Source: an uncultured bacterium
GTDB lineage: Bacteria; Bdellovibrionota_C; UBA2361; CALJRW01
Length of the DNA stretch: 64,000 bases
Direction of reading: 5' to 3'
NCBI GenBank assembly: GCA_937976335.1
Contig: CALJRW010000025.1
Coordinates: 7,103 to 71,102, forward strand
The notes beneath the pieces were generated by a model. It was given only the letters and a program-made list of their open reading frames with translations. It did no database searches and was not told the origin of the DNA. The position numbers and the translations under genes were made by a program. Below, one piece after another: positions 11,841-28,387 of the stretch. The number at the start of each line of letters is the position of its first letter. The stretch's first letter is position 1.

Positions 11841-12950
11841 GTGCAAATATTCTCAGAAATAGTAAAATTAACTAAAAATTTAAGCATTATACTAATATTA
11901 ATTTTAGTAGTTTCTTGCTCAAGCAAAAAAAAGTCTGGCCCTGTCGAAATAATCTCTCAAAGCCTTTCAAATACCGAAACTCCTGAAGAAAAACTTTTTA
12001 ATGCAGCGCAAGACGCATATGAACGAGAAATTTATACACTTGCACAAGATAACTATCAATTACTTCTTGATACATACCCAGATAGCACTTTTAAAACATA
12101 TGCTGAACTAAAACTTGCTGACACTTACTTTAACTTAAGAAACTTTCAAGTTGCATCTCAGAAATATGAAAATTTCAAAAGCGATCATCCCACATCTCCT
12201 GATGTTGCTTATGCCACACTACATGCTGCTAGAAGCTACCAGCTTACTAGTAAAGGAGCTGGAAGAGACTGCTCCCCATTAAAAAAAGCAATTGAAAATT
12301 ATAATTTTGTAATAGAAAAATTTCCAAACTCTCCTTTTGCTGATTCGGCAAGAGTTTACAGAGATAATGCTCAAAAAATCCTAGCTGATTCAGAATTAGA
12401 TGTAATAAATTTTTATGTGAAAGAAAAAAAAGAAGCTGCACAAAATGCAAGAATTGCAGATTACAAAAAACTCTATTCTGACGTAAACAAAACTGGAGAA
12501 TTAAAACATCAAACTTTTGGAACACTGGCTTACAATAACTCTAACTGGAAGCCTAAAAAAATCAATCTACATAAAACAAATAAACAAAAAAGTTCTCTAA
12601 GCAAAAAATCTACTTTTAAAGACAAAACAGAGGTATTAGCTAAAGCTGAAATTGAGCATTTAGCCTGCTCAAATAAAAACCCTAAACTTCTTTTTATCAA
12701 TTTAATGGGTTCTGAGGCTGAAAAAGTTATGAATTCTTATGAGAACGACACTATTTTAAATCCTAATGAGAAAGGAGAGGTTACTCTTAATCTTAATGAC
12801 TCTATTAAATACACTCCAGTAAAGCAGAATTGTTTTGCTAGCAAAGATTTAGAACTATCTAAAAATCACAGCTTAGTTCTAAAAAGCAAAGATCCTGTAA
12901 AACTGATTACAATGAAAAATCCAACCAGACTTGTTTTAGTTGTTCAATAG
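11841..12950 (+). CDS. bamD: TPR-containing outer-membrane lipoprotein, BamD(YfiO)-like, with extended C-terminal region
   Basis: Signal peptide plus lipobox LVVSCSS. TPR-like N-terminal ~230 aa (AQDAYEREIYTLAQDNYQLLLDTYPDSTFKTYAELKLADTYF...AIENYNFVIEKFPNSPFADSARVY) arranged as in BamD. GTG start. Confidence 0.5.
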   Translation: MQIFSEIVKLTKNLSIILILILVVSCSSKKKSGPVEIISQSLSNTETPEEKLFNAAQDAYEREIYTLAQDNYQLLLDTYPDSTFKTYAELKLADTYFNLRNFQVASQKYENFKSDHPTSPDVAYATLHAARSYQLTSKGAGRDCSPLKKAIENYNFVIEKFPNSPFADSARVYRDNAQKILADSELDVINFYVKEKKEAAQNARIADYKKLYSDVNKTGELKHQTFGTLAYNNSNWKPKKINLHKTNKQKSSLSKKSTFKDKTEVLAKAEIEHLACSNKNPKLLFINLMGSEAEKVMNSYENDTILNPNEKGEVTLNLNDSIKYTPVKQNCFASKDLELSKNHSLVLKSKDPVKLITMKNPTRLVLVVQ

Positions 12951-13444: not shown

Positions 13445-14362
13445 ATGACCACCTCTATTAGCCCAAAAGACTTTTTTTCTTCTTTAAGCCTAGAAAGCTT
13501 AAAAAAAGAAAAATCCATTGAAAAAATTTCTCTTTTTCTAAGACTAATTCTATTGATTATCTGTGCGATCCTACTTTTTTATATTTTTCAGAGCATTTTT
13601 TCTTATCTTAATGTTGGTACTGAAGCTATTAACAAGATGGAAACTCAAGTTAAAAACAAAGTAAACTTTCTCAGAAACAGTGAAAGTCAGAACAACAAGG
13701 AAATAGACTATTCTATCATAACTAATACTCAGATTATTGAGATTGGCAAAGCAAAAGCAGCAAGCCCTGTCAAACCTGATAAACCAATAAGTAAAATTGC
13801 TCTTAATTTAATTGGCACATTCTTAAGTGGTGGCATAGGCGAGCCATACGCGATCATCGAAGATAGCAAAAAAAGAGAACAAGAAGTTTTCTTAGTCGGT
13901 GATAAAATTTTCGAAGAAGATGCTACAGTTGAAAAAATCTTTTCAGATAGAGTTGAAATCAAGAGAAATGGAGAAGTTGAAATACTCATTTTTGATGAGA
14001 AGAGCTCTTCTGGAGAAAGAGAAGGCGGAACAAATACTGAAGGAGAAACTATTGGAGTTGATGAAAATGAACTAAATAAAGCATTGGACAACTTGCCTCT
14101 CTTACTAACTCAAGCTAGAGCAGTACCATACTTTAAAGATGGCAAATCTATAGGACTTAGGATGTTTGCGATTAAGAGAGGTAGCCTTTATGAAAAAATT
14201 GGGATTAAGAATGGAGATATCCTAAAGAGTATAAATGGCAATAATTTGGGCGACATAACCCAAGCAGTTAAACTATTTGAAAAACTCAAAAAGGAACGTA
14301 AAATAGAGCTTGAATTAGATAGAAATAGAAGCCCTAAAAAGATTTTTTATGAGATTAAATAA
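13445..14362 (+). CDS. gspC: Type II secretion system protein C (N-terminal TM, C-terminal PDZ domain)
   Basis: Single N-terminal TM helix (LFLRLILLIICAILLFYIF). C-terminal PDZ-like segment GLRMFAIKRGSLYEKIGIKNGDILKSINGNNL. It sits immediately upstream of the secretin. Confidence 0.75.
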   Translation: MTTSISPKDFFSSLSLESLKKEKSIEKISLFLRLILLIICAILLFYIFQSIFSYLNVGTEAINKMETQVKNKVNFLRNSESQNNKEIDYSIITNTQIIEIGKAKAASPVKPDKPISKIALNLIGTFLSGGIGEPYAIIEDSKKREQEVFLVGDKIFEEDATVEKIFSDRVEIKRNGEVEILIFDEKSSSGEREGGTNTEGETIGVDENELNKALDNLPLLLTQARAVPYFKDGKSIGLRMFAIKRGSLYEKIGIKNGDILKSINGNNLGDITQAVKLFEKLKKERKIELELDRNRSPKKIFYEIK

Positions 14363-14429
14363 ATTTTTATTTTCCCTCTATTGTTATATAACATTAGAAA
14401 AGGAAAATTTTTGGAGAGTAAGCTAAACC

Positions 14430-17177
14430 GTGAATAAGATTATTTTTGTAATATTAACTTTTTTTACTCTTCTCATTCTACCCACTACTTCGCTTTCACA
14501 AGATGAAGTTGATGAGAAGTCTACTGAAATTAATGTTAAAGATGCCGATATCGCAGCTGTAATTAGAATTTTTAGTAAGAAAACTAAAAGAAATTACTTA
14601 ATGGATGAAAAAGTCAAAGGGAAAGTTTCTATATATCTTCCTGGAAAAGTTTCTGAAGAAGAAGCTGATAGAATTCTTGATGCAGTGTTAGCGATTAAAG
14701 GATTCACAGCTGTACCAATAGGAGACAATCTTTGGAAGATAGTTCCCTCAGGTGAAGCTAAGCAAACAACAATTCCAACTATCAAAAAAACAGATGGTAG
14801 AGGCTCCCCTTCTATAGTAACCAGAGTTCTTAATTTAACTTACGTTGCTGCTGACGAAGTAAAACAACTCATACAGCCTTTGGTCTCAAAAGATGGCCTT
14901 TTAAATGCATACACAGGAACTAATTCCCTCATTCTAATTGACCATGAAGAAAATATTAAAAGACTAGAAGAAATTATTGAATCTTTTGATATTCCTTATA
15001 CAAATAGAGAAATGACAATCATTCCTATTGAGTATGCAGAGGCGCCTGATGTTGCAGATAAGATTAATCAAATACTATCTGAAAATAATGATTCTTCTAG
15101 CCAAAGTGGGAATCAAGGTTTGTTAAATGCTAGAGCGACTTTAAATGCCAATGTCGCTGCGCGTTCAAATAGCCAGGCAGGAAAAGCCAGTGCTGGAGGG
15201 ATTGGAAGTTCTTCTCTGACTGTTAGCGCTCGTTCTAGAGCCCCAAAAATTATCGCTGACGAAAGAACTAATTCAATTATCTTAGTTGCAGATGAAGATA
15301 CGACTGCAAGAATTAGAGCTTTAGTTTCTGAACTAGATAGCCAAATTGATAGATCTGGTAGCAAATTTTATGTATACAGATGTCAGCACGCAGATGCTGA
15401 AGACTTAGCTGATGTTTTGTCAGGCCTGTCTGGTGAAGGAGGATCAGTGGGTAGTAGAAACAACGCATCTTCCTTTGCTGGAAGAGGCTTAAATACACCT
15501 AGTGGTAGAAATAATTCAAATAATAGAAATAGTAGAAGTCAAAATAGATTAAGCAGTCAAAGTAGAACACCAGGAAGATCGAGAACAAGTAATTCTAACA
15601 CTGGCAATTTATCTGCAAATCTTGGTGAAGATATTTCAATTACGGCTGACCCATCTACAAATTCATTAATCATTAATGCTAGTAAAACTGACTATGCTAA
15701 GATTTTAAGTCTTCTAAAAAAGCTTGATATCAAAAGACGTCAAGTGCTTGTTCAAGCTGTTATTTTAGAAGTTGGTGTGAATGATACTGTGGACTACAAT
15801 ACTGAGTTTACAGCATCAGGCGGCGGTTCAGATGGCGGTATATTTGCTGCCAATGGCGGTGGTAGCTTAACACAATTACTTAGCAATCCAACTGCACTAG
15901 ATAGATTCACAGTTGCTGCTGCTAGCCAAGGAGTACTAACCTTGCCAGGGAATTTAGTAATTCCTTCGCAAACTGTGCTTTTACAAGCTGCACAAACTGC
16001 TTCTAACGTTAACGTTTTAAGTGCTCCAAACATTTTAGCTACTGACAACGAAGAAGCAGAAATTGTTGTTGGACAAAACGTTCCATTCTTAGCTAGTACT
16101 GCTTCAAACAGTCAAAACTTAAATAACACCTTTAATCAAATTGACAGACAGGATGTTGGAATAACCTTAAGAATCACACCTCAAATAAGCTCGAGTGATT
16201 TTGTAACCCTTAGAATGTTTACTGAAGTTTCAAGTGTTGTAACTGGTACATCAGGCTCTGATTTAGGCCCAACCACAACAATCAGAACTAGTGATACAAC
16301 AGCAATAGCCAAAGATAGCCAGATGATAGTTGTAGGTGGTTTAATGGCTGATGACATCACGGAAAGCGAAAGTGGAATTCCTTTCATTAAAGATGTTCCT
16401 TTTATCGGACATTTCTTTCAATCAAAAACTGAAGTTCAACGAAGAACTAATTTACTAATCTTCCTAACTCCAACGATAATCAGAGACCAATTTGATCATA
16501 GAGATCTAACGCTCGAGCACAGAGATGTTCTTCAAAAAGACATTGATAATTATAAAATTTATCCTACTAGGAAGGAAAAACTTTATCACAAAGATCTACA
16601 TTCAGTTATTGAAGGGAAACCTTATAGTGGCCCTGTTCCTGGAACTATACTTCCTCCAATAAAGTCTAGAACTAAAAACACTAACTCAATGTCTAAAGAG
16701 AAAGATTCTCTCGCTCTTAATTCTCCGTTAGCAAATTCAGACACCAGACAATTCTCTGTTAAACCAAAACTTCCTGAAGTTCCTAATAAGAACTTCAGAA
16801 GCAATAATGAGATCGATCCTGTAGCTTCAACTCTATTAGGAAAAACTCAAAAAAGTAACTTTGGTAAGTTTGTAGTCCTTGAGACTGATAACCTTAGTTC
16901 AGGGACTCCTTTAACTATCGATCCTGATTCAAAGCTTACTATGATTCAAATTCCTAAAAATGTTCCCAGTGAAGTAAACAGTTTTTTCCGCTCGGGAGAG
17001 ACATATTCATACAACACAGGAGATCATAACAATTTAGGATTAAAGGTTATGGGAATCTTTAACTCTGCAGAAGAAGCTTCTAGTTTTTACTCAGATCTAC
17101 CGAACAATTGGCATACATTATCTTCTTTTGAAAGTCTCAATATTGGAAAATCACCCTGGATAAAAACAAAAAAATAG
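14430..17177 (+). CDS. gspD: Type II secretion system secretin GspD, with internal low-complexity insertion and long C-terminal extension
   Basis: Signal peptide. N0/N1 domains (NVKDADIAAVIRIFSKKTKRNYLMDEKVKGKVSIYL). Secretin core (VLVQAVILEV...NVLSAPNILATDNEEAEIVVGQNVPF...IVVGGLM...LLIFLTPTII). Extra S/N/R-rich tract at aa ~330-400 and ~230 aa after the conserved C-terminus. Confidence 0.9.
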   Translation: MNKIIFVILTFFTLLILPTTSLSQDEVDEKSTEINVKDADIAAVIRIFSKKTKRNYLMDEKVKGKVSIYLPGKVSEEEADRILDAVLAIKGFTAVPIGDNLWKIVPSGEAKQTTIPTIKKTDGRGSPSIVTRVLNLTYVAADEVKQLIQPLVSKDGLLNAYTGTNSLILIDHEENIKRLEEIIESFDIPYTNREMTIIPIEYAEAPDVADKINQILSENNDSSSQSGNQGLLNARATLNANVAARSNSQAGKASAGGIGSSSLTVSARSRAPKIIADERTNSIILVADEDTTARIRALVSELDSQIDRSGSKFYVYRCQHADAEDLADVLSGLSGEGGSVGSRNNASSFAGRGLNTPSGRNNSNNRNSRSQNRLSSQSRTPGRSRTSNSNTGNLSANLGEDISITADPSTNSLIINASKTDYAKILSLLKKLDIKRRQVLVQAVILEVGVNDTVDYNTEFTASGGGSDGGIFAANGGGSLTQLLSNPTALDRFTVAAASQGVLTLPGNLVIPSQTVLLQAAQTASNVNVLSAPNILATDNEEAEIVVGQNVPFLASTASNSQNLNNTFNQIDRQDVGITLRITPQISSSDFVTLRMFTEVSSVVTGTSGSDLGPTTTIRTSDTTAIAKDSQMIVVGGLMADDITESESGIPFIKDVPFIGHFFQSKTEVQRRTNLLIFLTPTIIRDQFDHRDLTLEHRDVLQKDIDNYKIYPTRKEKLYHKDLHSVIEGKPYSGPVPGTILPPIKSRTKNTNSMSKEKDSLALNSPLANSDTRQFSVKPKLPEVPNKNFRSNNEIDPVASTLLGKTQKSNFGKFVVLETDNLSSGTPLTIDPDSKLTMIQIPKNVPSEVNSFFRSGETYSYNTGDHNNLGLKVMGIFNSAEEASSFYSDLPNNWHTLSSFESLNIGKSPWIKTKK

Positions 17178-17186
17178 GTTTTAAAA

Positions 17187-18794
17187 TTGACAGATTCTGA
17201 AAATACAAATATTGAGACGACATTAAAGCTAACAGCCGAATTTCTTGGCTTAGAATTTCTTAAACAATTACCTGAGCCTGTGCCCCCAAGAGACTTAGTT
17301 AGGGGAGACTTTGAAAGAATAGCTGGTTCTTGGGGCAGAAATTTTCAAACTATTCCTATTGGAGAAAATGGTAATTATATACAAGTTGCAACGGCCGATC
17401 CCTTAAATGTTGAAATATTTGATCAACTCAGACTTTGCTACAATAAGCCACTTGAGATTTTAGTAACTGGCCCTGAAGAAATTACTAAAGCCATTAATGC
17501 AATTAGAACTAATTTAATGACCGATCGATCTAACGAACTTACATCTGAAGAAGATGAAGACGAAAAAAATATAAGCGGAGCAGATCTTAAAATTGATGTT
17601 ACTGATGCTGAAGATGACGACGCTCCAATAATAAGATACGTAAATGCAATCATCTTTAAAGCCAGTTCTGAACGAGCATCTGATGTTCATGTAGAACCAT
17701 ATGAAGATACTCTAAATGTAAGATTTAGAATTGATGGAGTCTTATCTGACGTAGCGACTGAGGATAAAACTTTTCAAGCTGCAATTCTGTCTAGAATTAA
17801 AGTCATGGCAAACCTAAATATTGCTGAAAAAAGACTTCCTCAAGATGGAAGAATTGGACTTAAGATTGCAGGAAAGGACGTAGATATCAGAGTTTCTACT
17901 GTGCCCACTCAATTTGGCGAAAGAATTGTTATGCGTCTTTTAGACAAAACAGCAACGGTACTCGATCTAGCGCAAGTTGGCCTTACTGGCAACAATCTTA
18001 AAATGATCAATAAATTGATTCAAAAGCCGAATGGCATAGTCCTAGTAACAGGGCCAACTGGTTCTGGTAAAACAACTACCTTGTATTCTTGCTTAACTCA
18101 AATCAACACTCCAGATAAAAATATCTTAACAGTAGAAGATCCAATAGAATACCAACTTCAAGGAATTGGTCAGATGCAAGTAAATCCTAAAATTGACTTT
18201 ACATTCGCTTCTGGATTAAGAGCTATTTTAAGACAAGATCCTGATGTTGTGATGGTAGGTGAGATTCGTGACACTGAAACTGCAGAGATAGCCATTCAAG
18301 CTTCCCTAACTGGTCATCTTGTTTTCTCAACTCTCCACACCAATGACTCTGCCGGAGCTATTGCGAGACTTCTTGATATGGGTGTTGAACCTTTCTTAGT
18401 TTCATCAAGTCTGCTTGCAGTTATGGCGCAAAGACTAGTTAGAAAGCTTTGCCCTGCTTGCAAAATACCACATACACTCACTGCTGAAGAAATGACAGAA
18501 CTTGGTCTTAGCCAAAATGACATTGGAAATAGTCAGGTATTTAGACCAAAAGAAGGAGGCTGCGAAGCTTGCCAATTTAATGGCTACTCTGGAAGATGCG
18601 GGATTCATGAATTACTTGTAGTGAATGATGAAGTACGGACTAAGATTTTACAAAAAACAGATGCAGGTTCAATTAGAAATGCTGCTTTTTCTGGAGAATT
18701 TAAAACTCTACGAAGAGACGGAGCTGATAAAGTTTTAGAAGGCATTACATCTGTTGAAGAAGTAATTTTGGTTAGCCATGAAGACGGGTCTTAA
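17187..18794 (+). CDS. gspE: Type II secretion ATPase GspE
   Basis: Walker A GPTGSGKTTTLY. Tetracysteine zinc motif CPACK...CEACQFNGYSGRCG. GspE N-terminal domain. TTG start. Confidence 0.92.
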   Translation: MTDSENTNIETTLKLTAEFLGLEFLKQLPEPVPPRDLVRGDFERIAGSWGRNFQTIPIGENGNYIQVATADPLNVEIFDQLRLCYNKPLEILVTGPEEITKAINAIRTNLMTDRSNELTSEEDEDEKNISGADLKIDVTDAEDDDAPIIRYVNAIIFKASSERASDVHVEPYEDTLNVRFRIDGVLSDVATEDKTFQAAILSRIKVMANLNIAEKRLPQDGRIGLKIAGKDVDIRVSTVPTQFGERIVMRLLDKTATVLDLAQVGLTGNNLKMINKLIQKPNGIVLVTGPTGSGKTTTLYSCLTQINTPDKNILTVEDPIEYQLQGIGQMQVNPKIDFTFASGLRAILRQDPDVVMVGEIRDTETAEIAIQASLTGHLVFSTLHTNDSAGAIARLLDMGVEPFLVSSSLLAVMAQRLVRKLCPACKIPHTLTAEEMTELGLSQNDIGNSQVFRPKEGGCEACQFNGYSGRCGIHELLVVNDEVRTKILQKTDAGSIRNAAFSGEFKTLRRDGADKVLEGITSVEEVILVSHEDGS

Positions 18795-18800
18795 AAGAAA

Positions 18801-20027
18801 ATGCCAGTATACGAATATCAAGGGATAGATAAATCAGGGAAAAACACAAAAGGCACTATTGATGCTGAAAGTGAACGTTCCGCAAGACAAAAACTTAGAG
18901 GTCTTAGTATTTACCCAACTTCTGTTAAAGAAGCTTTTGATGTTGCCAATAAAAAATCAAAAGATGTTCTGCAATACTTTCAAAGCAACAAACTCTCTAC
19001 GAAAGATTTATCTATAGCAACTAGACAATTAGCAACTCTTATTGGAGCAGGCCTGCCTCTTGTCACTGCACTTAGCTCTTTATCTAATCAAGCTGAATCT
19101 CCTATTTTAAAAAGAATAGCAACTGATGTGAAAGAAAATGTACAAGAAGGAGAATCGCTTTCTAAATCTCTTGATAAGTTTCCAAAATCTTTTCCTAAGC
19201 TCTACATAAATATGGTTGCTGCAGGAGAAGCAGCTGGAAACTTACATGGTGTTCTTGAAGATCTCGCTGATTATCTTGAAGCTCAAGTCGCATTAAAAAG
19301 TAAAATTCGCTCAGCGTTAATGTATCCTGTTGTTATGATGATTGTTTGCTTTCTAGTAATCGCTCTCCTTTTTATCTTTGTAATTCCAAACATTGTTGAA
19401 ATTTATACCAAACAAGGTGCGATACTTCCACTGCCAACTCAAATTATGATTGGGATTTCTGATTTTCTAAAAAACTATTGGTGGAGCATACCAATTTTTG
19501 CTTTCTTACTAATTTCTCTTATTCGTTGGTATTACAAGACAAGCCAAGGGCGTTCCAATATTGATAGACTATTGATGAAATTACCAGTCTTTGGTCCTAC
19601 ATACTTAAAAATTAATACAGCAAGAGTTGCTCAAACCCTTGGAACCCTACTTAATTCTGGCGTTCAGCTTTTAAAAGCAATGGATATTACGAAAAAAATC
19701 ATTTCGAATATTCACATAGTAGAGGCACTAGAGAATGCTAAAGAAGGAGTTAGGGAAGGAAAAAGTTTAGCTCAAGAACTAAGTAAATCTAACCTTTTTC
19801 CTTCAATGCTAATGCAAATGATTTCAGTAGGAGAACAAAGTGGTGAATTAGAAAGCATGCTCGACAGAGCAGGCACTGCATATGAAAAAGAAGTAAACTC
19901 AACTGTTGAAAGTTTAACATCAATAATGGAGCCAGTATTAATGGTTATAGTTGGTGGAATTGTGTTGTGTATTGTGATTTCTGTTTTATTACCGATGGCT
20001 GATTTGATTGAGGTTATTGGCGGCTAG
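18801..20027 (+). CDS. gspF: Type II secretion inner-membrane platform protein GspF
   Basis: 408 aa with the duplicated GspF/PilC architecture and three TM segments. Follows gspE after 7 nt. Confidence 0.9.
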   Translation: MPVYEYQGIDKSGKNTKGTIDAESERSARQKLRGLSIYPTSVKEAFDVANKKSKDVLQYFQSNKLSTKDLSIATRQLATLIGAGLPLVTALSSLSNQAESPILKRIATDVKENVQEGESLSKSLDKFPKSFPKLYINMVAAGEAAGNLHGVLEDLADYLEAQVALKSKIRSALMYPVVMMIVCFLVIALLFIFVIPNIVEIYTKQGAILPLPTQIMIGISDFLKNYWWSIPIFAFLLISLIRWYYKTSQGRSNIDRLLMKLPVFGPTYLKINTARVAQTLGTLLNSGVQLLKAMDITKKIISNIHIVEALENAKEGVREGKSLAQELSKSNLFPSMLMQMISVGEQSGELESMLDRAGTAYEKEVNSTVESLTSIMEPVLMVIVGGIVLCIVISVLLPMADLIEVIGG

Positions 20028-20201
20028 ATTGAGCATGCTAGGAGAAAAAAAGCTTCCCTCATTTTTTTCTATTTAACCTGACTAAGTAGCTAGAAACACT
20101 ACGATAATACAATTCAACAAGATATATAAACAACACTCCCCATTGGCTGTTTTAACTATTTTTGTTTAAACTAGGGAAATATAGACAAGGAGAACTCACA
20201 A

Positions 20202-20609
20202 ATGAAAAGAATAAATTCTGAATCAGGACTGACTTTAATTGAAATTATGGTTGTACTTATAATCATAGGGGTTATGGTTTCAACTTTTGGGAAAAAGTTG
20301 TTCGGTGCTGGTGATAAAATGAAAGCACAACTTGCGCAAACACAACTTCAAACATTAAAAAGCTATATTGAGCAATATAATCTGCGATACAACAATATTC
20401 CTAACACAATTCGAGATCTTTCTTCATGCACAGAAGCGACGGGACAAGGTTGCATTCCTATTGCTAATGAAGAAGAACTATTAGATCCGTGGGGAGTTGA
20501 ATTTCAATATTCTCGAAATGGTAATAGATATCAAATTAAAACTATGGGAGCAGATTCAACTGCTGGCGGCGATGGAGTTAATTTTGATACCTTTATTGAA
20601 GGGCCATAA
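20202..20609 (+). CDS. gspG: Major pseudopilin GspG
   Basis: Prepilin leader plus GLTLIEIMVVLIIIG (G-F/L cleavage site with E at +5). 135 aa. Confidence 0.88.
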   Translation: MKRINSESGLTLIEIMVVLIIIGVMVSTFGKKLFGAGDKMKAQLAQTQLQTLKSYIEQYNLRYNNIPNTIRDLSSCTEATGQGCIPIANEEELLDPWGVEFQYSRNGNRYQIKTMGADSTAGGDGVNFDTFIEGP

Positions 20610-20634
20610 AATTTTTTTTTAATGGTATTTTCTA

Positions 20635-21216
20635 TTGCGGAAACTAAGCATCAAGAGAGCTAAAGCAGGCTTTACTCTAATTGAACTAGTAGTAGTTCTC
20701 GTAATTATTGGTGCAGTATTTGGCATAATTAATTTAAGTTCTGGTACTATTGAATACTGGCAAAAAGAATCTTTTGTTAGAAAACTATCTGAAATACTAG
20801 AATTCCTTCACCACAACGCAATTGCAGATCAAAAAAACTATCGCATTGAATTCTATATGGGAGATGATAAGCACTATTATAAAATCGGCTTACCCTCAAG
20901 CGAAGGAACAGGCACTTCAGGAATGCCTAACTACCCTTCACTATCTAATGAAGAATATTTACCTAAAGATACTTATATAGTAGATATAAAAACTGCTCGC
21001 GGCATTGAGGAAACTTCAACTAACGATAAAAATCCCTATCTTAACTTTCACAAAAGAGGTTTCTCAGACTTTGGTGTAATTCATCTCGGAATGTATAATA
21101 GACAAGACGAGATTGCCTACGTTACTATCTTAGTAAACCCCTTTACTGGCCTTACTAAAATATATCGAGAATATAGAGATTTTGAATATACATACAAAAA
21201 AAATGAAGAATCCTAG
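20635..21216 (+). CDS. gspH: Minor pseudopilin (GspH-like)
   Basis: KAGFTLIELVVVLVIIG prepilin N-terminus. TTG start. 193 aa. Confidence 0.7.
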   Translation: MRKLSIKRAKAGFTLIELVVVLVIIGAVFGIINLSSGTIEYWQKESFVRKLSEILEFLHHNAIADQKNYRIEFYMGDDKHYYKIGLPSSEGTGTSGMPNYPSLSNEEYLPKDTYIVDIKTARGIEETSTNDKNPYLNFHKRGFSDFGVIHLGMYNRQDEIAYVTILVNPFTGLTKIYREYRDFEYTYKKNEES

Positions 21217-21661
21217 CAAAGCAAATGAATTAGGCTTTACTCTAATTGAAATCACTCTTGCAATTTTAATGCTTGGTGGAGCTTTAACTGTATTTCTTGG
21301 CCTTCAAACGGCAGCTGTTCAAAAAGCTCTTAGAGATAAACAGCAATTTAAAGCCATGCTCCTCGCAAGATCTCTTATGTCAGGTATAGAGCTAAACAAT
21401 AATAATATTGACGAGCAAGAAACTATTAAAAGTGCATATGACAGGCTTGAAGAGTTGAATATACCTGTAGACGAAAAAGAGGAGAATCAATACGATCGAT
21501 TTGAAACGATCCTCAAGGTTGAAAAAATCCTAATACCTCTTCCAATTCCTGATCCTTCAGGACTTCCTCAAGATATCGAAATGAAAAAATTTGTGTTAAC
21601 TCTAACATGGGGAGACAACCCCGAAGATACCTTTGATATAACTTATTTTTCTCCGTTATGA
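21182..21661 (+). CDS. gspI: Minor pseudopilin (GspI-like)
   Basis: ELGFTLIEITLAILMLGG prepilin N-terminus. The true start is probably the ATG at ~21203. Overlaps the previous gene. Confidence 0.7.
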   Translation: MNIHTKKMKNPSKANELGFTLIEITLAILMLGGALTVFLGLQTAAVQKALRDKQQFKAMLLARSLMSGIELNNNNIDEQETIKSAYDRLEELNIPVDEKEENQYDRFETILKVEKILIPLPIPDPSGLPQDIEMKKFVLTLTWGDNPEDTFDITYFSPL

Positions 21662-22350
21662 TGATTAAATTAAAAAAACATATAGAAGATGGAATGACCT
21701 TAATGGAGGTTGTATTAGCAGTAACTATTCTTACATTTATTATTTCCATTGCTTACAGATCTATTGCTAAAATAACGGAATCTAAAACTTTATTAGATGA
21801 AGAGAGAGAACTCTTTGCAGTAGGAAATGCATTATATAATAGATTAAGTAGCGAGTTATCTCAGGTCGGCACCACAGCAAATTTACTTCCTTTTGATGGC
21901 ACAACGGCCTACCCAAGTAACTTTCATCTTCTTGGAAAAAGCAGAAATATTGGAGGTGAACGTGGAGATGTTATTTCATTTATTGCTGACAATGCTGGTC
22001 AATTTATTCCAGATGGAGGAAGCAATGCTGGATTAGTTGTTATAAGATACAGGATGGAAAAAAATCCAGAACAAGAAAATGGTAATGAAAAAACTTTTCT
22101 CTTAATAAGAGATGAAATGCCTCATAATGATAATGTAAAATTAGCTCAACAAAGAATTATGACCTTTCCTATCAGTGACAGAGTAACAACTTTAAAATTT
22201 CAATACTTTGACAATGCCTCTAAAGACTGGCAAGAAGAATGGTCAGAGACGCAGAATTACATCCCAGCACTTGTTAAATTTACAATTGGATTAAGTTCGG
22301 AAAAAGGGAGAGAAGTTCTGTTTTCTACTGTTATTTTTATTGGGACTTGA
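21658..22350 (+). CDS. gspJ: Minor pseudopilin (GspJ-like)
   Basis: GMTLMEVVLAVTILTFI prepilin-like N-terminus. 230 aa. 4-nt overlap with the upstream gene. Confidence 0.65.
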   Translation: MMIKLKKHIEDGMTLMEVVLAVTILTFIISIAYRSIAKITESKTLLDEERELFAVGNALYNRLSSELSQVGTTANLLPFDGTTAYPSNFHLLGKSRNIGGERGDVISFIADNAGQFIPDGGSNAGLVVIRYRMEKNPEQENGNEKTFLLIRDEMPHNDNVKLAQQRIMTFPISDRVTTLKFQYFDNASKDWQEEWSETQNYIPALVKFTIGLSSEKGREVLFSTVIFIGT

Positions 22351-22522
22351 ACTACGCTTTTTAAGCTAACTTAAATTTAAGATAGGCATAGAAGACTAAG
22401 CTAATACTACACGATGAGTATTTTCAAATACTTAAAAACAACAATATTAGTTAACGTAAATACTCAGCAAAACACTCTAATACCTTGCTATCACTCTATT
22501 TTCAGGTTAGATTTTACAATAC

Positions 22523-24079
22523 ATGCAAAAAATTCTTTGTTTAGACATATCTCAAGAACCAGCTCAATTAAATCTAGTTGAAGTTAAAGAGAACTCAATA
22601 AAGGTTATAGAAAAAAAGACTTTTGAATTAGATAAAGAATTCTATTTTGATGCTTACTTAACAAATAATAGAGGATCTGGAGTATTTGATTCTGGAGCTA
22701 TTGACTCTCGAACTATTGACTCTGAAGCTATTGACTCTGGAACTGAGACTAACTCTTCAGAAGAGGCGACTAACAACATTGGAAATGACATAAAGCAAGG
22801 CTCTGTAAAAATAGATCTAAAACTATCTCAACTTGCGGAAGCTTTGAATTCATTTGAAAATTCGTGGAGCAATAGTGTAGTTGTTGTACCCCCTAATGAA
22901 CATATTTCTCTTTCTGTTGAACTTCCCTTTAGTGACGACAAAAGCATTGAAAAAGTAATTAACTTAGAAGTACAGGACTTAGTTCCTTTTAACTTAGATG
23001 ATTTTTTAGTTCAATATTCTAAAATTGAAGAAGATAGTAATAAATTATATGTAAACCTCGTTCCTAAACTTGCAGTAAAATATCTTCTAAAAAAACTTAA
23101 AGTCTTAACACTAGAGCCTGAAGTAGTTACGACACCAAGCGGTTCACTTGGTGCGGCTTTACACCTTGCTCCTAAATATTTTTCTAACAACAGTGCTATT
23201 CTTTACTCAAGTAAGTTATATAATCATCTTGCTATCGTAATTAATGGAAAAATCGTTGGAGAAAAATCACTTACGCTTGTGGATGATAATGAAGTCAACC
23301 TAAAAAATCTCAAAATTTGCCTAACTAGTTTTGAAAAAAAATTTGATACCAGACTTGAAAAAATTTATATTTTAGGCGCTGAAATTCTCGCTTCTGAACT
23401 GCAAGCTAAAATTGGTAGGCCTTGCGCTAACTTTACTACGTCCGAACTCATTAAAGAATCAACAGATGGCGTGACAAGCCTTGCCTCAGTTTTTGCAAAA
23501 GATATAGATCCTCCAAAACTAATCACAAATTTTAGAGCTAGAGAATTCTCGTATAGTCCTTATCTTAAAAATATAATTAAAGGCTTGTTAAAAATACGTT
23601 GGGAAGCTCTGGCTGCATTATTTTTGTTACTTTTGCTACCTTTAATAAACTACTTTTTTACTAGTCTTAATATCTCAAAAATTAATTCCTCAATCAGTAA
23701 AAATGTCAAACAATATGCTGAAATTACTGGTAAGAAACCGCTTAGTTTAGTTGCCGATGAAAATGCTCAATTAAGTCGAGAACTCTCTGCTCTTGGAGCG
23801 CCAACTAGTTCGTCTATTCTTAATTCTTTTATAACAGTAGCTAAAGACATTAAAAAAGCAAAAGAAACTTCTCAGATAAATATTACTAATCTTAGATTTA
23901 AAGGTGACAGAATAAGCGTAGAGGGCACTGCACCTAACTATTCTGATGTTAGTAATTTTGAATCTGTATTAAATCAAGAAAAAAAAGATAAATTATATTG
24001 CAAGGTAAGTCATGATTCTAAATCAGGATCTAAAGGAGCCCAAAGAGGGTTTAAATTTACAATAAAACTGTGTGATTAA
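22523..24079 (+). CDS. gspL: Type II secretion protein GspL-like (cytoplasmic actin-like domain, single TM, periplasmic domain), containing a coding 15-bp tandem repeat
   Basis: N-terminal ILCLDIS... domain ~340 aa. TM WEALAALFLLLLLPLINYFF. Periplasmic C-terminus. The repeat VFDSG/AIDSR/TIDSE/AIDSG is encoded by 15-nt units at 22682-22741. Confidence 0.6.
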   Translation: MQKILCLDISQEPAQLNLVEVKENSIKVIEKKTFELDKEFYFDAYLTNNRGSGVFDSGAIDSRTIDSEAIDSGTETNSSEEATNNIGNDIKQGSVKIDLKLSQLAEALNSFENSWSNSVVVVPPNEHISLSVELPFSDDKSIEKVINLEVQDLVPFNLDDFLVQYSKIEEDSNKLYVNLVPKLAVKYLLKKLKVLTLEPEVVTTPSGSLGAALHLAPKYFSNNSAILYSSKLYNHLAIVINGKIVGEKSLTLVDDNEVNLKNLKICLTSFEKKFDTRLEKIYILGAEILASELQAKIGRPCANFTTSELIKESTDGVTSLASVFAKDIDPPKLITNFRAREFSYSPYLKNIIKGLLKIRWEALAALFLLLLLPLINYFFTSLNISKINSSISKNVKQYAEITGKKPLSLVADENAQLSRELSALGAPTSSSILNSFITVAKDIKKAKETSQINITNLRFKGDRISVEGTAPNYSDVSNFESVLNQEKKDKLYCKVSHDSKSGSKGAQRGFKFTIKLCD

Positions 24080-24091
24080 AGCGTACTTAAT

Positions 24092-24664
24092 ATGAAACAA
24101 GTAAAAGAATTACAAGCAAAATTTGTGAAATGGATGAAATCCTTAACTCAAAAAGAGCATATTTTGTTAGCTGTAGCCTGTGTCTTTGTATTATTTTGGT
24201 TAAGCGGAATTGTATATGAATCAGTAACAGGAAAGTTAGATAAGCACGAAAAAACCTTAAAAACTGAACTGACTAAATTAAAAAGCGTGCCAGAGGTTAT
24301 AGAAACAAATATTAAGCTAAGAAAAAGAAAAGCTGAAGTTGAAGAAAAGTTAAAAGGCGTTGAACTATCTCAAGGAGGCCTGGCGCATTTAGAACAATTG
24401 ATTAAAACAAAAGCCAAAATTAGTGAAAAAGATTTTAGCATTAAACCTAAATCAACAAGAAAAATTAGCGAACGCTTTGAGCAAACCCCCTATTCTGTAA
24501 AGATGGAAGTAACAGAATATAAAAACTTACTGAGCTTTTTAAGAGAATTAGTCAACGGACCTAAGAGAATGGTCTTAAATACACTCAACCTTACAAAATC
24601 AAGAAATGGTCAAAAACTAGCAGTTGATTTGGAAGTTAGCTCACTTAAAAGAATCGGATCCTAA
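24092..24664 (+). CDS. gspM: Type II secretion protein GspM-like
   Basis: 190 aa. N-terminal TM ILLAVACVFVLFWLSGIVY followed by a periplasmic domain. Position directly after gspL. Confidence 0.6.
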   Translation: MKQVKELQAKFVKWMKSLTQKEHILLAVACVFVLFWLSGIVYESVTGKLDKHEKTLKTELTKLKSVPEVIETNIKLRKRKAEVEEKLKGVELSQGGLAHLEQLIKTKAKISEKDFSIKPKSTRKISERFEQTPYSVKMEVTEYKNLLSFLRELVNGPKRMVLNTLNLTKSRNGQKLAVDLEVSSLKRIGS

Positions 24665-24678
24665 TTTTTTAAGTACTT

Positions 24679-25605
24679 ATGATTAAAAAAATATTCTTAA
24701 CATTTTTTATAGTAGGAATAATTGCATTACTCGCATTTGGAAATGTTAAAATCAAAACAATGGGAAAAGATTTAGAAATCCTAGCAGCTAATTATGCTAA
24801 AAAAAATGGATTTCTACTAAGTATCTCAGATTTAGAACCTAAAATCTTAGGTGGTAAATCTAAAAAAGCCACTGTAACTGTTCCTATGAAAGCAGGCTTT
24901 TTTAATCTTGACTTAGATAACCTTGACTTAAATCTTTCTTTATTGAAAATATTTTTTAAAACTCTCAAAGGAGAAATTCACGCTAACTCTTATGAAGGTA
25001 ATTTTTCTTCTAAATTTAATATCTCACCTAAGAAAGTTATTAATATTCAAAAAATAGTACTCAGAGATCTTAAACTTGGAAATCATCCTCAACTTGGAGC
25101 TCTGGGAATAAGAAGAGGGAAATTGAGCCTTTTAGGTGATAAATTGAATTTAAACTTAGATAGAAAATCTGTTAATATCAAAAAATTAAATCTTAATATT
25201 TCAGAGTTTTTTTTAAAAAAAGATCTACAACTTAAACCCCCTCTAATCATGTATCCGATCACTCTACCTAATATTGAAAAATTAAATATTTCTCTCAAAG
25301 GAAATTGCGAGCATAGTTTTTGTAAAGGAGAGTTAAATTCAAATTTAAACTTAGGCAAGATTTACGGAGATCTTAGTTTTGTCTTAGATAAAAATTTAAA
25401 CTTTGATTTAAAAAAACTTGTTTTGAATATAACAGTCAGCTTGACTGATTTAGGAGTAAAAGAGATTGGAACTTATCTTCAATTCATTAGCCCAGCAATC
25501 AACAAGAATATTAAGTTTTCTAACTTAAGCAGTAGCACTAAGAAATTTCGAATTATTAAAGATAATTTAGGTTTTAAATTTCGTGAGATTAAAGGCGAAG
25601 CTTAG
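24679..25605 (+). CDS. Type II secretion protein GspN-like (alternatively a divergent GspK)
   Basis: 308 aa. N-terminal TM FLTFFIVGIIALLAF, remainder periplasmic. It is the last gene of the gsp cluster. Assignment is by position and topology only. Confidence 0.45.
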   Translation: MIKKIFLTFFIVGIIALLAFGNVKIKTMGKDLEILAANYAKKNGFLLSISDLEPKILGGKSKKATVTVPMKAGFFNLDLDNLDLNLSLLKIFFKTLKGEIHANSYEGNFSSKFNISPKKVINIQKIVLRDLKLGNHPQLGALGIRRGKLSLLGDKLNLNLDRKSVNIKKLNLNISEFFLKKDLQLKPPLIMYPITLPNIEKLNISLKGNCEHSFCKGELNSNLNLGKIYGDLSFVLDKNLNFDLKKLVLNITVSLTDLGVKEIGTYLQFISPAINKNIKFSNLSSSTKKFRIIKDNLGFKFREIKGEA

Positions 25606-25823: not shown

Positions 25824-26960
25824 ATGCTCTCATTTAAGATTAAACCAAAAACTATACTACTTCTTCGAGAACTAACAAAAAGACTTACAAAAACTCAAAT
25901 TTTAATTGAATCACTGGAAGCTCAAGAGTTGGAATTCATTAAGCGTAATGCCCTTATTAGTAATATTGGAGCATCTACTAGGATTGAAAATGCAGTGCTC
26001 ACTAACTCTGAAATTGATTGGGTAGATACTGCCTTAACAAGTGACGGAAAAACAACATCTTTTGAAAATCAAAGAGAGGCAATTCAAGACAAGTTATCAA
26101 AAGACAAAGAGCGAAGTATTGATGAAGTTGTAGGTTGTAGAGCAATGCTACAATTAATTAACCAGCAAGCAAACAACCTTTTTCCACTTACAGAGGTGAC
26201 CTTGCGTGGGCTTCACAAGGAGTTACTTAAGTATCACGCCCCTGACAACTACCATAGTGGCGGTTACAAGCAAGTTCCTAATAGTGTTGTTCGCAAGGTG
26301 AAAATGTCAGGTTGTCCTGTAAAAGAATATCCTGTTCTTACAACTTCCCAACCAGGACTCGAAACTGAAGAAGCTATGACAGCTTTAGTTGGCTGGTATA
26401 ATAATACCCTTAAAGTTCATCCTTGGACTATTGCTGTAGCGGTAGAGTTTGTATTTAGGTTCTTAGCTATTCATCCATTTCAGGATGGTAATGGTAGGGT
26501 GGGACGTGGCTTATTTTATTTAACACTATTGCAAAGCCCTGATGATAGCATTTCTAGTACGATTTCTTACTTAGCTATTGATAGATATGTAGAAGTAGAA
26601 AGAGAGGAATATTATGCCGTTCTTAGTAGGTGCTCAGATGGTAAATTTATAGCTGACCCTACTAAGTATGCTTATGAGCATTTTTTAAATTTTATGCTTA
26701 AGGTGATCGATTGCTCGATTGACGATGTTGAGCTTTATAGGGATAAATTTAAGCGTTTAAATAGTCTTACTACCTCACAACGAGTTGTCCTAACTTGTTT
26801 TAAAGAGCAACCTGAGCTTAGATTACAAGCTAAAAATATCGTTGAGTATACCAATCTACCTCGAACAACTATCAACGATGCATTAAAAGCTTTGATAAAA
26901 AATAAATTTATTCAAAAGTATGGGCGAGGTGCTGACGTTAAGTATCAGCTGCTTTTTTGA
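25824..26960 (+). CDS. fic: Fic family protein (AMPylase/Fido domain) with C-terminal winged-helix domain
   Basis: Canonical Fic motif HPFQDGNGRVGR (HPFx[D/E]GNGR). ~200-aa N-terminal region. C-terminal HTH-like LPRTTINDALKALIKNKFI. Confidence 0.88.
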   Translation: MLSFKIKPKTILLLRELTKRLTKTQILIESLEAQELEFIKRNALISNIGASTRIENAVLTNSEIDWVDTALTSDGKTTSFENQREAIQDKLSKDKERSIDEVVGCRAMLQLINQQANNLFPLTEVTLRGLHKELLKYHAPDNYHSGGYKQVPNSVVRKVKMSGCPVKEYPVLTTSQPGLETEEAMTALVGWYNNTLKVHPWTIAVAVEFVFRFLAIHPFQDGNGRVGRGLFYLTLLQSPDDSISSTISYLAIDRYVEVEREEYYAVLSRCSDGKFIADPTKYAYEHFLNFMLKVIDCSIDDVELYRDKFKRLNSLTTSQRVVLTCFKEQPELRLQAKNIVEYTNLPRTTINDALKALIKNKFIQKYGRGADVKYQLLF

Positions 26961-27260
26961 ACTACTCTAGGAAATAAGTTTAGTTAGGAATTATGCCTAG
27001 CAATATATTTCCTGAATCCTGGTCAAGTCTTGGTAAATCCTAGTGCCAGTAACATAATAAGTCTAAATTTTCACAAATTCTACTCACTTTAGCCGAAGTT
27101 TGCTTGAAAAACGAAAAGCTGCTACTTGCTACCCTTCTCAATATGAATGTTTGCAAAATTTTCTACAAAATTACCTTGAGTTCCCCACTTACTTCACAGC
27201 ACTTATTCTCGAAAATGCTAAATAACTAGCCTCTCTGCTTTTATAAGATTTACTACTTGA

Positions 27261-27367
27261 ATATGTGCTTATTACGGCAAAAAATGGCTTTGCCATTATT
27301 TTCTCGCCCAACAAATCATTTAGTTTTCCCGCTTAAAAGCGGAAAAACCAAATGTCGTTGGGTATAT
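27261..27367 (+). repeat. MITE-A, 3'-half copy (truncated)
   Basis: TATGTGCTTATTACGGCAAAAAATGGCTTTGCCATTATTTTCTCGCCCAACAAATCATTTAGTTTTCCCGCTTAAAAGCGGAAAAACCAAATGTCGTTGGGTATA matches the 3' halves of the copies at 38.1, 45.4, 55.1(rc) and 63.8 kb. Confidence 0.8.
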
Positions 27368-27895
27368 CTAGGAGGAAAGCAAAAAAGATTCAATAATAGC
27401 ACTATTCGTAATCCCACGATTCACGGCCATTTTATTTAATTTACTGATAGCCTCAAGACTAAGGGTAAATGATTTAACTTTTTTGTGTTTATTGATGGGT
27501 TTTACTCTTTTGTCAGGAATTTCGAAATTAGCCCAATACTTCATTTTTGAGCATTCAATGCCCTTATATTTAAGTGGTAATTCGCTGCCATTTTTAATCT
27601 TTTCAATAATAGTTTGCAGTTCTTTTGGCATCTCTTCAATTCCAATAAAGTTGTTTTGAAAGTGAAGCAAGGCAGCTGGGAAAACTTCCAAAACTCTAGG
27701 CTCTACATTGCGGGCTACCCATAGAACATCTTTGATTCTTAAAATAACCTTATGTTTTGATTTTATTTTAGGATATTTTAAATAACCCTTTGCTATCAAG
27801 AATCCTAGAGTATTTTCTGCTCGTTCAGAGTTGAGATTTTTTAAGAATAGCTTTTGTAGTTCTTTGGTTTTTTTTATTATTTTATTGTTAGTCAT
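27368..27895 (-). CDS. Hypothetical protein with C-terminal ribbon-helix-helix (CopG/MetJ-like) DNA-binding domain; downstream gene of a two-gene module
   Basis: C-terminal KSFTLSLEAISKLNKMAVNRGITNSAIIESFL has the beta-strand/helix/helix RHH pattern. It starts at the nucleotide immediately after the stop of the upstream 163-aa gene. Confidence 0.55.
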   Translation of the reverse strand: MTNNKIIKKTKELQKLFLKNLNSERAENTLGFLIAKGYLKYPKIKSKHKVILRIKDVLWVARNVEPRVLEVFPAALLHFQNNFIGIEEMPKELQTIIEKIKNGSELPLKYKGIECSKMKYWANFEIPDKRVKPINKHKKVKSFTLSLEAISKLNKMAVNRGITNSAIIESFLLSS

Positions 27896-28387
27896 TTATA
27901 TTATCTCTTCTAATGAAATTTTATACTTTAAAAAGAGCTTTTCAAGCTCTACAGAGAATTCAGCTATAGCCTGTATAAGTAATTGTTTATTTTTTTCAGG
28001 TGCAAATTTAGCTTTTGAAACTAAAGTTGAAAATGAATCAATGACATGTACTGTAATCTTCTTAGAAGAATAATATTTCCAAAACTTAGCTTCTGTTGGA
28101 ATCCATATTTCTTTACTTAGTTCGTCATAGTCGTAGCCATGTGATCTTAGGATTTCTTTGAAATGAAATTTAATTGTAGAATCACCTTCAAGGAGCGCAT
28201 CTAAATCGTTAGTAGCAATTATATTTAACTTTTTATTTATGCTTTCATCTAATAATAGACTTGCTTGGCCGAGAACTTTGATTTGAATTTTCCCAGTTTT
28301 AGGTAGGCCATCTTGACAAAGTTGTTGATCGAGTTTGTTTACTATGCTTTCAAGCTCTTTTAGTATTTTATCTAAATCTTCTTTCAT
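27896..28387 (-). CDS. Hypothetical protein with possible minimal nucleotidyltransferase-like motif; upstream gene of a two-gene module (candidate toxin/abortive-infection component)
   Basis: VLGQASLLLDESINKKLNIIATNDLDALLEG resembles the G[GS]x(n)...DxD core of MNT/AbiEii-type NTases (weak, by eye). It is translationally abutted to the RHH gene. An AT-rich palindrome lies just upstream. Confidence 0.45.
   Translation of the reverse strand: MKEDLDKILKELESIVNKLDQQLCQDGLPKTGKIQIKVLGQASLLLDESINKKLNIIATNDLDALLEGDSTIKFHFKEILRSHGYDYDELSKEIWIPTEAKFWKYYSSKKITVHVIDSFSTLVSKAKFAPEKNKQLLIQAIAEFSVELEKLFLKYKISLEEII

Follow-up and report, generated by a model that had tools for sequence, protein, structure and literature searches.

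A 64-kb stretch of DNA from an uncultured, predatory-type member of the Bdellovibrionota (the whole of it is hereafter called the window) carries a type II secretion system (T2SS) cluster at positions 13445–25605. This cluster is probably the normal T2SS locus of its lineage, arranged in the modules bamD-gspCDEF, GHIJ and LMN, from which the minor pseudopilin gene gspK has been lost and in which the secretin GspD ends in a new tethered C-terminal domain (CTD). Throughout the lineage, gspK has been lost from the site that it canonically occupies, between gspJ and gspL. Structure models and homologue conservation further indicate that the secretins of the lineage keep S-domain-like helices, followed by a disordered tether of ~85 aa and a predicted CTD of ~100 aa. 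An earlier sequence-only reading of the window had noted the missing GspK and described the secretin as atypical; both features recur in some 70 related loci and in over 110 homologous secretins. Judging by its genes, the locus is a lineage-typical variant of a known T2SS and not a peculiarity of one genome. No published description of the K-less locus or of the CTD was found in a literature search.

The closest homologues of GspD number in the hundreds (880–1000 aa, ~50% identity, 96–100% coverage), and their named sources are Bdellovibrionota, Oligoflexia and Bdellovibrionales. Related loci were gathered by a genome scan with GspD alignment, from which the best 80 were taken, none of them belonging to a cultured genus; the later searches covered the window plus 84 loci. 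The 76 ingroup loci originate from metagenome-assembled genomes (MAGs) labelled Bdellovibrionota, Oligoflexia, Bdellovibrionales or 'delta'. Four outgroup loci (L081–L084) are of the Myxococcota type; they have one more gene, placed between J and L, and served as the positive control for GspK. The search for gspK extended over the 64-kb window and ±10 kb around the related loci, using two hidden Markov models (HMMs), one built from the outgroup J–L genes and a larger one from 120 delta-type GspK sequences. The larger model was run with the filters off on the six-frame translation of the window and the 84 loci.

The suspected absence of GspK from the cluster, and indeed from the window, held in all these searches. 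No cluster protein had a GspK match in Pfam or NCBIfam, and the larger HMM found nothing better in the six-frame window than the N-terminal helix of GspI (E = 0.063). The 172-nt spacer between gspJ and gspL (22351–22522), the site of gspK in sister clusters, is non-coding: it holds no open reading frame (ORF), and the six-frame HMM search picked up no trace of GspK in it. The prepilin motif was present in only four ORFs of the 64 kb (gspG, gspH, gspI and gspJ, all with Glu+5, a residue that GspK lacks), and 10 further window ORFs of suitable size encode unrelated proteins or proteins without a Pfam match, none of them GspK. In a relative annotated by NCBI/IMG, the cluster genes are named PilV/PulG, PulJ or 'type II secretion system protein', never GspK. 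The gene directly after gspJ had been read as gspL rather than gspK, which is supported by its PilM-like profile match, transmembrane (TM) helix and PilN-like C-terminus, and profile searches assigned no ORF to GspK, including the one at 24679–25605.

Candidates for a disguised GspK were also tried and rejected. A short GspK hidden as GspH, GspI or GspJ was dismissed on hhalign comparisons with the GspK profile, which gave N-terminal-helix similarity only (probability of 0.4% for GspH). A fusion of K and L in the 518-aa protein was discarded, its N-terminus being PilM-like and cytoplasmic, with just ~130 aa past the TM helix. The protein encoded at 24679–25605 matches the GspN_Lepto model and has no GspK HMM match.

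The same picture emerged across the related loci, whose gene order (bamD-gspCDEF, GHIJ, LMN) is that of the window. A recognisable gspJ was found in 42 of the 76 ingroup loci: gspL follows directly in 21 of them, the operon ends at gspJ in 19, with L-M-N located elsewhere, and 2 are truncated. No gspK was present within ±10 kb in any of these 42, and the GspK HMMs were silent in all 76 ingroup loci. Where gspL follows gspJ, the gap measures 18–303 nt in 19 of the 21 loci and ~1.1–1.2 kb in the other two, which have a small inserted ORF. Among the window and the 84 loci, the GspK HMMs matched only L081–L084, with E-values down to 1e-181. The J–L gene of L081–L083 also matches Pfam T2SSK_1st (1e-24, 1e-21 and 2e-18, respectively), so the models are able to detect a delta-type GspK; in L084, the submitted ORF has no Pfam match, and an overlapping ORF is matched by the GspK HMMs at 1.6e-132 and 5.7e-127. 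The sister clusters have retained gspK between J and L in an otherwise identical gene order. With H, I and J of the window matching the H/I/J genes of the outgroup in unchanged succession, the simplest history is a deletion of gspK in the ancestor of the clade.

The gap between gspF and gspG (20028–20201, 174 nt) and that between gspJ and gspL (172 nt) are the longest intergenic gaps of the cluster. Both coincide with gene insertions or cluster splits in relatives, suggesting that CDEF, GHIJ and LMN are each a module of transcription or mobility. A scan for promoters and terminators gave no more sites than in shuffled controls.

The source of the window is a metagenome assembly, and the J–L spacer is AT-rich and non-coding, as might be expected if the cluster were decaying or if gspK had been lost by mis-assembly of the contig. 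However, all 11 of the 11 ORFs are intact, an independent Logan assembly of run ERR9287621 is identical across J–L, and the same J–L junction recurs in ~21 independent genomes. Decay or artefact as the cause of the missing gene is effectively refuted.

The second feature of the lineage is the tail of the secretin. The ~230-aa extension of GspD after the secretin domain, noticed already in the sequence-only reading, does exist, with 230 residues past aa 686. Conservation among homologues splits it into a conserved part (aa 686–740), a variable part of low occupancy (aa 741–815) and a conserved part comprising the last ~100 aa, and the AlphaFold2 (AF2) model of aa 600–915 likewise consists of helices, an unstructured linker and a compact domain with a predicted local distance difference test score (pLDDT) of 89–97. 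The first part is an S-domain-like helical segment at aa ~686–725 (16485–16604, forward strand), with 32–57% identity of the homologues to the query per 20-aa block; AF2 places helices at aa 690–708 and 715–724, with block-mean pLDDT of 78–85 for aa 690–709 and ~64–69 for aa 710–729. The second is a variable, presumably disordered linker of ~85 aa at aa ~726–812 (16605–16865, forward strand), with an occupancy of 0.53–0.71 and an identity of 14–18%, modelled at a pLDDT of 38–54 and without secondary structure. The third is the CTD proper, a predicted globular domain of ~100 aa at aa ~813–912 (16866–17165, forward strand), with the motifs LPF, FFxxGxxYxY, GxFxSxxEA and WYTLSPxEIMNLGxGPW. Its block is present in 114 of 120 homologues, and when it was modelled alone (AF2, 52 sequences), the pLDDT was 93 and the predicted template modelling score 0.85.

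The CTD had no Pfam match even at E = 10 and no sequence relative in the PDB. A search of its profile against 1.84 billion representative proteins returned 71 clusters, all but three of which were either GspD-collinear or C-terminal fragments of GspD. The CTD HMM matched 70 ingroup secretins and none from the outgroup. Of the five ingroup secretins under the threshold, those of L053–L056 have weak, diverged or shortened versions of the domain, and that of L058 has a tail that looks CTD-like by eye (E = 0.8).

In the outgroup, the GspD tails of L077, L081 and L083 end in an AMIN domain (PF11741, 2e-7 to 2.5e-10, above the gathering score) placed after a similar linker, and those of L078 and L084 have the same AMIN-like sequence. 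These five AMIN-tailed T2SS secretins are of the Myxococcota and Binatia types. AMIN domains are cell-wall (peptidoglycan) binders, better known at the N-terminus of PilQ. Since the sister secretins have AMIN on a like tether at the same position, the CTD would be a periplasmic module for anchoring or positioning, its putative target being the cell wall or some other partner in the envelope. The idea that the CTD itself is a diverged AMIN domain was tried and rejected (hhalign probability of 0.2%).

The sequence-only reading had proposed other roles for the extension, namely as a substitute for the S-domain or for a pilotin, or as a means of surface display. The first of these is weakened, since the model still has helices immediately behind the secretin domain, and after them the linker and a separate globular domain. 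As a built-in pilotin, the CTD would take the place of a lipoprotein pilotin and act as a self-targeting device, guiding the secretin in the outer membrane or stabilising it there. It does come after the S-domain region, the place where pilotins bind in other secretins; moreover, bamD adjoins the cluster, and no pilotin-like gene was recognised among the cluster proteins by Pfam/NCBIfam scans, with no dedicated pilotin search made. However, the ~85-aa disordered tether that parts the CTD from the helices fits a module reaching out better than a chaperone bound to the barrel, the CTD lacks a lipobox and resembles no pilotin of solved structure, and the sister secretins carry a cell-wall binder, AMIN, at the same place. 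The pilotin role is quite improbable. Nothing points to surface display, which is further weakened by the retained helices and the tether, and by analogy with the sister secretins, the CTD is likely to be neither a pilotin substitute nor surface-displayed. As to whether the extension is an ordinary feature of relatives, it proved to be conserved there, with no known function attached to it.

Several points weigh against the preferred reading of a lineage-normal locus with lost gspK and a tethered CTD. The absence of gspK holds for the 64-kb window and ±10 kb of the loci, not for the whole genome. The assignments of GspH, GspI, GspJ, GspL, GspM and GspN are all under the curated cut-offs. The anchoring role suggested for the CTD comes only from its positional analogy to AMIN, with which it has no profile similarity. 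Moreover, the loss of K and the gain of the CTD each fall at a single phylogenetic split, so that their co-occurrence is uninformative on a functional link. Finally, in a comparison of 132 Bdellovibrionota genomes, where the T2SS was called 'almost complete', the KEGG Orthology (KO) entry for gspK, K02460, was listed in 100% of the genomes in all four Bdellovibrionota groups (PMC8067016, supplementary file 6; the text cites Table S5), and gspH, gspI, gspJ and gspL were called less often than gspK. This listing points to either an orphan gene or a KO misassignment. The earlier claim of a missing GspK, thus, stands for the locus and the window but not as a statement on the genome, since the survey reports K02460 in all the Bdellovibrionota genomes it covered. 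The clusters examined have no GspK gene, and a short GspK among H, I and J, which could have accounted for the K02460 calls, was rejected as described above.

Because no cluster gene is named GspK by NCBI/IMG, the K02460 call, if real, would belong to a gene elsewhere, the candidates being an orphan gspK or a K/PilX-type minor pilin of a type IVa pilus. Such a K subunit supplied in trans, encoded alone or within a type IVa pilus operon and shared with the T2SS, is a fair guess that nevertheless falls short of being probable. It would account for the 100% listing of K02460 despite the less frequent calls of gspH, gspI and gspJ, none of whose proteins in the annotated relative is named GspK. The cluster is, besides, already modular, with LMN elsewhere in 19 of the 42 gspJ loci and gspO outside the window. 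Prepilin peptidases are often shared between systems, and Pseudomonas aeruginosa offers a known case of cross-priming between T2SS minor pseudopilins and type IV pili. On the other hand, no such gene was present in any of the sequences examined (the window and the locus flanks), and a rate of 100% in partly incomplete MAGs resembles, and could mean, promiscuous KO assignment. In addition, the 120 best homologues of delta-type GspK include no protein with a Bdellovibrionota label and none with the low-GC amino-acid composition that is typical of these genomes.

This last result speaks for a machine that truly has no K, whose genomes would encode no GspK-type subunit and in which a GspI–GspJ heterodimer, with GspH below it, would cap and prime the pseudopilus; the T2SS would then have adapted to do without its apical subunit. 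Nucleation starts from a GspI–GspJ core, and mutants deficient in K remain able to assemble pseudopili. No GspK turned up in the window or within ±10 kb of the 76 related clusters, and Glu+5 is kept in all four pseudopilins. However, K02460 was listed in every Bdellovibrionota genome of the KO survey, and the search reported here covered the window and the locus flanks rather than the whole genome. Moreover, across type IV pili and T2SS, the pilI-J-K synteny has been described as 'almost invariably' conserved, and tip-complex assembly as dependent on a C-terminal beta-strand that GspK supplies (bioRxiv 10.64898/2026.02.14.705861). Against this view of a near-universal synteny and a required strand, a truly K-less clade would be notable. 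The explanation itself appears rather doubtful. The bolder combination of both features, i.e., a mostly uncultured Bdellovibrionota clade with a T2SS truly devoid of GspK, where GspI–GspJ alone would license pseudopilus initiation and an undescribed C-terminal fold would position the secretin in place of AMIN, is to be regarded as unlikely.

One further group of pilin-like genes was seen in the diverged related locus L054, where three more genes with a prepilin motif occupy 41–1400 on the reverse strand; their products measure 307, 136 and 155 aa, and Glu+5 is present in at least the longest. They lie ~9 kb upstream of gspC, on the strand opposite to it, and resemble a set of minor-pilin genes of a type IV pilus, truncated where the locus ends.

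Returning to the lineage-normal T2SS with lost gspK, its mode of work can be proposed from family membership. GspE would power GspF, GspL and GspM, by which a short GspG pseudopilus would be polymerised after priming by GspH-I-J, and the pseudopilus would then push folded periplasmic proteins through the GspD secretin. The tip might be made of GspI–GspJ (possibly with GspH) alone or might include K supplied in trans, for instance from an orphan gspK or from the type IVa pilus, whose K-type minor pilin it would be.

The S/N/R-rich stretch of GspD, which the sequence-only reading had considered an atypical insertion, exists as well but is the usual loop of the N3 domain, equally long in relatives and outgroups. 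It occupies aa 333–402 (15426–15635, forward strand; 16 S, 13 N, 10 G and 9 R) within the third Secretin_N domain, whose Pfam match runs over 315–438 against a profile of 69 positions. The loop is present in 120 of 120 homologues, partly conserved in sequence, with a conserved R...RxxGxxR motif (an invariant R373, and a conservation of at least 90% at R379, G382 and R385), and its length is 69 aa here, against an ingroup median of 72 and 44–72 aa in the outgroups. A second low-complexity loop, which the sequence-only reading does not mention, lies in the N2 domain (aa 217–271; 15078–15242) and is longer in this clade, with an ingroup median of 50 aa versus 16–33 aa in the outgroups.

The gene calls of the sequence-only reading were correct: gspC-D-E-F-G-H-I-J-L-M-N are 11 intact ORFs at 13445–25605, all on the forward strand and separated by small gaps or overlaps. 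The spacings are 67 nt (C–D), 9 (D–E), 6 (E–F), 174 (F–G), 25 (G–H), 172 (J–L), 12 (L–M) and 14 nt (M–N), and the H/I and I/J ORFs overlap. By the GspC_delta and GspN_Lepto models, the cluster can be ascribed to a T2SS of the 'delta/Leptospira' flavour. The ORF directly upstream of gspC in the window and in most related loci (among L002–L080) encodes the outer-membrane assembly lipoprotein BamD (11841–12950, forward strand; TIGR03302 3e-39, Pfam YfiO 7e-21). The linkage of bamD and gspC is tight and conserved, placing an outer-membrane protein assembly factor beside the secretin operon, and it may or may not be functional.

The components of the first module, and GspG of the second, are assigned by curated profiles that score above their own cut-offs. 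The delta-type gspC (13445–14362) encodes an HR domain and a C-terminal PDZ (Pfam T2SSC 1.2e-17, 64.5 bits with a cut-off of 27; PDZ_6 4e-5; NCBIfam GspC_delta 1.2e-40, under the cut-off). The secretin gene gspD (14430–17177; 915 aa) matches TIGR02517 over aa 34–694 (1.5e-151, 505.8 bits, cut-off 351.35), and the Pfam domains of its product are N0, three Secretin_N and Secretin at aa 520–685, followed by the C-terminal extension. The ATPase gene gspE (17187–18794) matches TIGR02533 (2.9e-201, 669.3 bits, cut-off 630.25) and Pfam T2SSE (1.5e-146). At its N-terminus (aa 21–106), GspE has an MshEN-type domain (Pfam PF05157, 2e-9), and domains of this type bind cyclic di-GMP in some homologues. 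The inner-membrane platform gene gspF (18801–20027) matches TIGR02120 (1.1e-136, 456.3 bits, cut-off 424). All four genes are on the forward strand, as are those of the two following modules.

In the second module, the major pseudopilin gene gspG (20202–20609; G|LTLIE, Glu+5) matches Pfam T2SSG (2.2e-13, 50.6 bits, cut-off 21) and N_methyl (2.6e-5, 24 bits, cut-off 21.2), TIGR01710 being under the cut-off. The minor pseudopilins were assigned with family alignments of 37–39 orthologues each, drawn from the related loci. The gspH-like gene (20635–21216; 193 aa; G|FTLIE, Glu+5) belongs to a family in which 36 of 37 members match TIGR01708 GspH and ComGD, and its nearest relatives outside the clade are named GspH, at ~90% query coverage, one of them with Pfam PF12019. 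For the gspI-like gene (21182–21661, the public gene call starting at 21203; 159 aa; G|FTLIE, Glu+5), the family matches are XpsI in 37/37, PilV in 24/37 and GspI in 10/37. The gspJ gene (21658–22350; 230 aa; G|MTLME, Glu+5) matches Pfam T2SSJ (3.9e-5) and TIGR01711 (1.3e-6), its family profile matches the EpsJ chains 2ret_B and 3cfi_B at 1e-5, and one relative is named PulJ/GspJ family. In phmmer searches, H, I and J of the window matched the H/I/J genes of the outgroup in the same order.

The third module starts with gspL (22523–24079; 518 aa), whose product has a PilM-like cytoplasmic domain, a TM helix at aa ~365–385 and a PilN-like periplasmic domain. Its family profile matches PilM (3jc8 at 2.9e-9 and 2ych at 3.3e-8) and weakly EpsL (4pht), and the protein has Pfam matches to PilN (3e-4), PilM_2 (9e-4) and T2SS_L_SYNERG (6e-6). 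A D/S/T/E-rich stretch of low complexity with short 'xIDS' repeats (GAIDSRTIDSEAIDSG...) is situated at aa ~50–95 of GspL (window ~22670–22810), in a region variable within the family. The next gene (24092–24664), in the canonical position, is probably gspM, with Pfam T2SSM (3e-4) and XpsM (0.014) both under the cut-off; one of the GspM relatives has a weak T2SSM Pfam match, and another is named PilO by IMG. The last one (24679–25605) is probably gspN of the Leptospira/delta type (TIGR04411 T2SS_GspN_Lepto 4.9e-9, 36 bits, cut-off 50). A prepilin peptidase (GspO/PilD), already reported as absent from the window, was not found among its mid-size ORFs, i.e., those of suitable length.

In at least seven relatives, gspN is followed by a gene for a conserved ~220-aa protein with an N-terminal TM helix and a long coiled coil: L004 (12503–13159, reverse strand), L009 (21386–22045), L011 (21297–21959), L022 (21492–22148), L034 (21597–22265), L037 (15661–16323) and L065 (17519–18178). 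In L004, this gene moves with the inverted L-M-N block. The coiled-coil protein may belong to the L-M-N module as a fourth, so far overlooked component; no homologue of it was found in the 64 kb of the window. At the corresponding position, the window has three other genes (25824–28387), with GC content dipping to ~0.30 nearby: one encodes a Fic-domain protein with a C-terminal winged-helix domain (25824–26960), and the other two are opposite-strand ORFs, one of them with a faint Mrr-like nuclease match. This region may be a small inserted islet.

Predatory bacteria are believed to rely strongly on type II secretion. GspK/PilK-type subunits are at present regarded as a near-universal cap, required by the mechanism, of the tip complexes of type IV filaments. 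The loss of gspK from the T2SS operon of a large natural clade, with the gene kept in the sister operons, offers a ready-made test of K as a required tip cap: the machine can do without K, or else K is taken from another system. The CTD is a compact and confidently modelled family with no known relative and a single protein position, which makes it tractable for studies on how a secretin is positioned relative to the cell wall. For annotation, a GspK missing from Bdellovibrionota clusters should not be taken as a sign of an incomplete system.

Compared with the canonical Gsp/Pul/Eps T2SS of Proteobacteria (gspC-O), the locus shares the N0–N3 secretin, GspE, GspF, GspC with PDZ, GspG as the major and, probably, H/I/J as minor pseudopilins, probable GspL/M proteins and the gene order. 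It differs by having no gspK between J and L, gspO outside the locus, bamD linked upstream, a 518-aa GspL with a full PilM-like cytoplasmic domain, a GspN of the Leptospira/delta type, and a secretin with a ~230-aa tail that bears a tethered extra domain. The Leptospira T2SS has the same type of GspN (it is the source of TIGR04411) and the same overall cluster flavour, but gspK has been reported there (PMC13066512). With the Myxococcota-type T2SS (L081–L084), the common traits are the C-D-E-F-G-H-I-J-(K)-L-M-N order, a GspD that is 37–39% identical, a similarly long N3 loop and, in several of them, a linker-borne C-terminal domain after the secretin domain. In contrast to the window, these systems have kept gspK, and their tail domain is AMIN (PF11741) instead of the CTD. 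The PilQ secretins of type IVa pili, in turn, have a peptidoglycan-directed accessory domain on a flexible linker, which resembles the anchoring proposed for the CTD, although the AMIN domain is N-terminal in PilQ, the CTD is C-terminal in GspD, and the two have no detectable similarity in sequence or fold.

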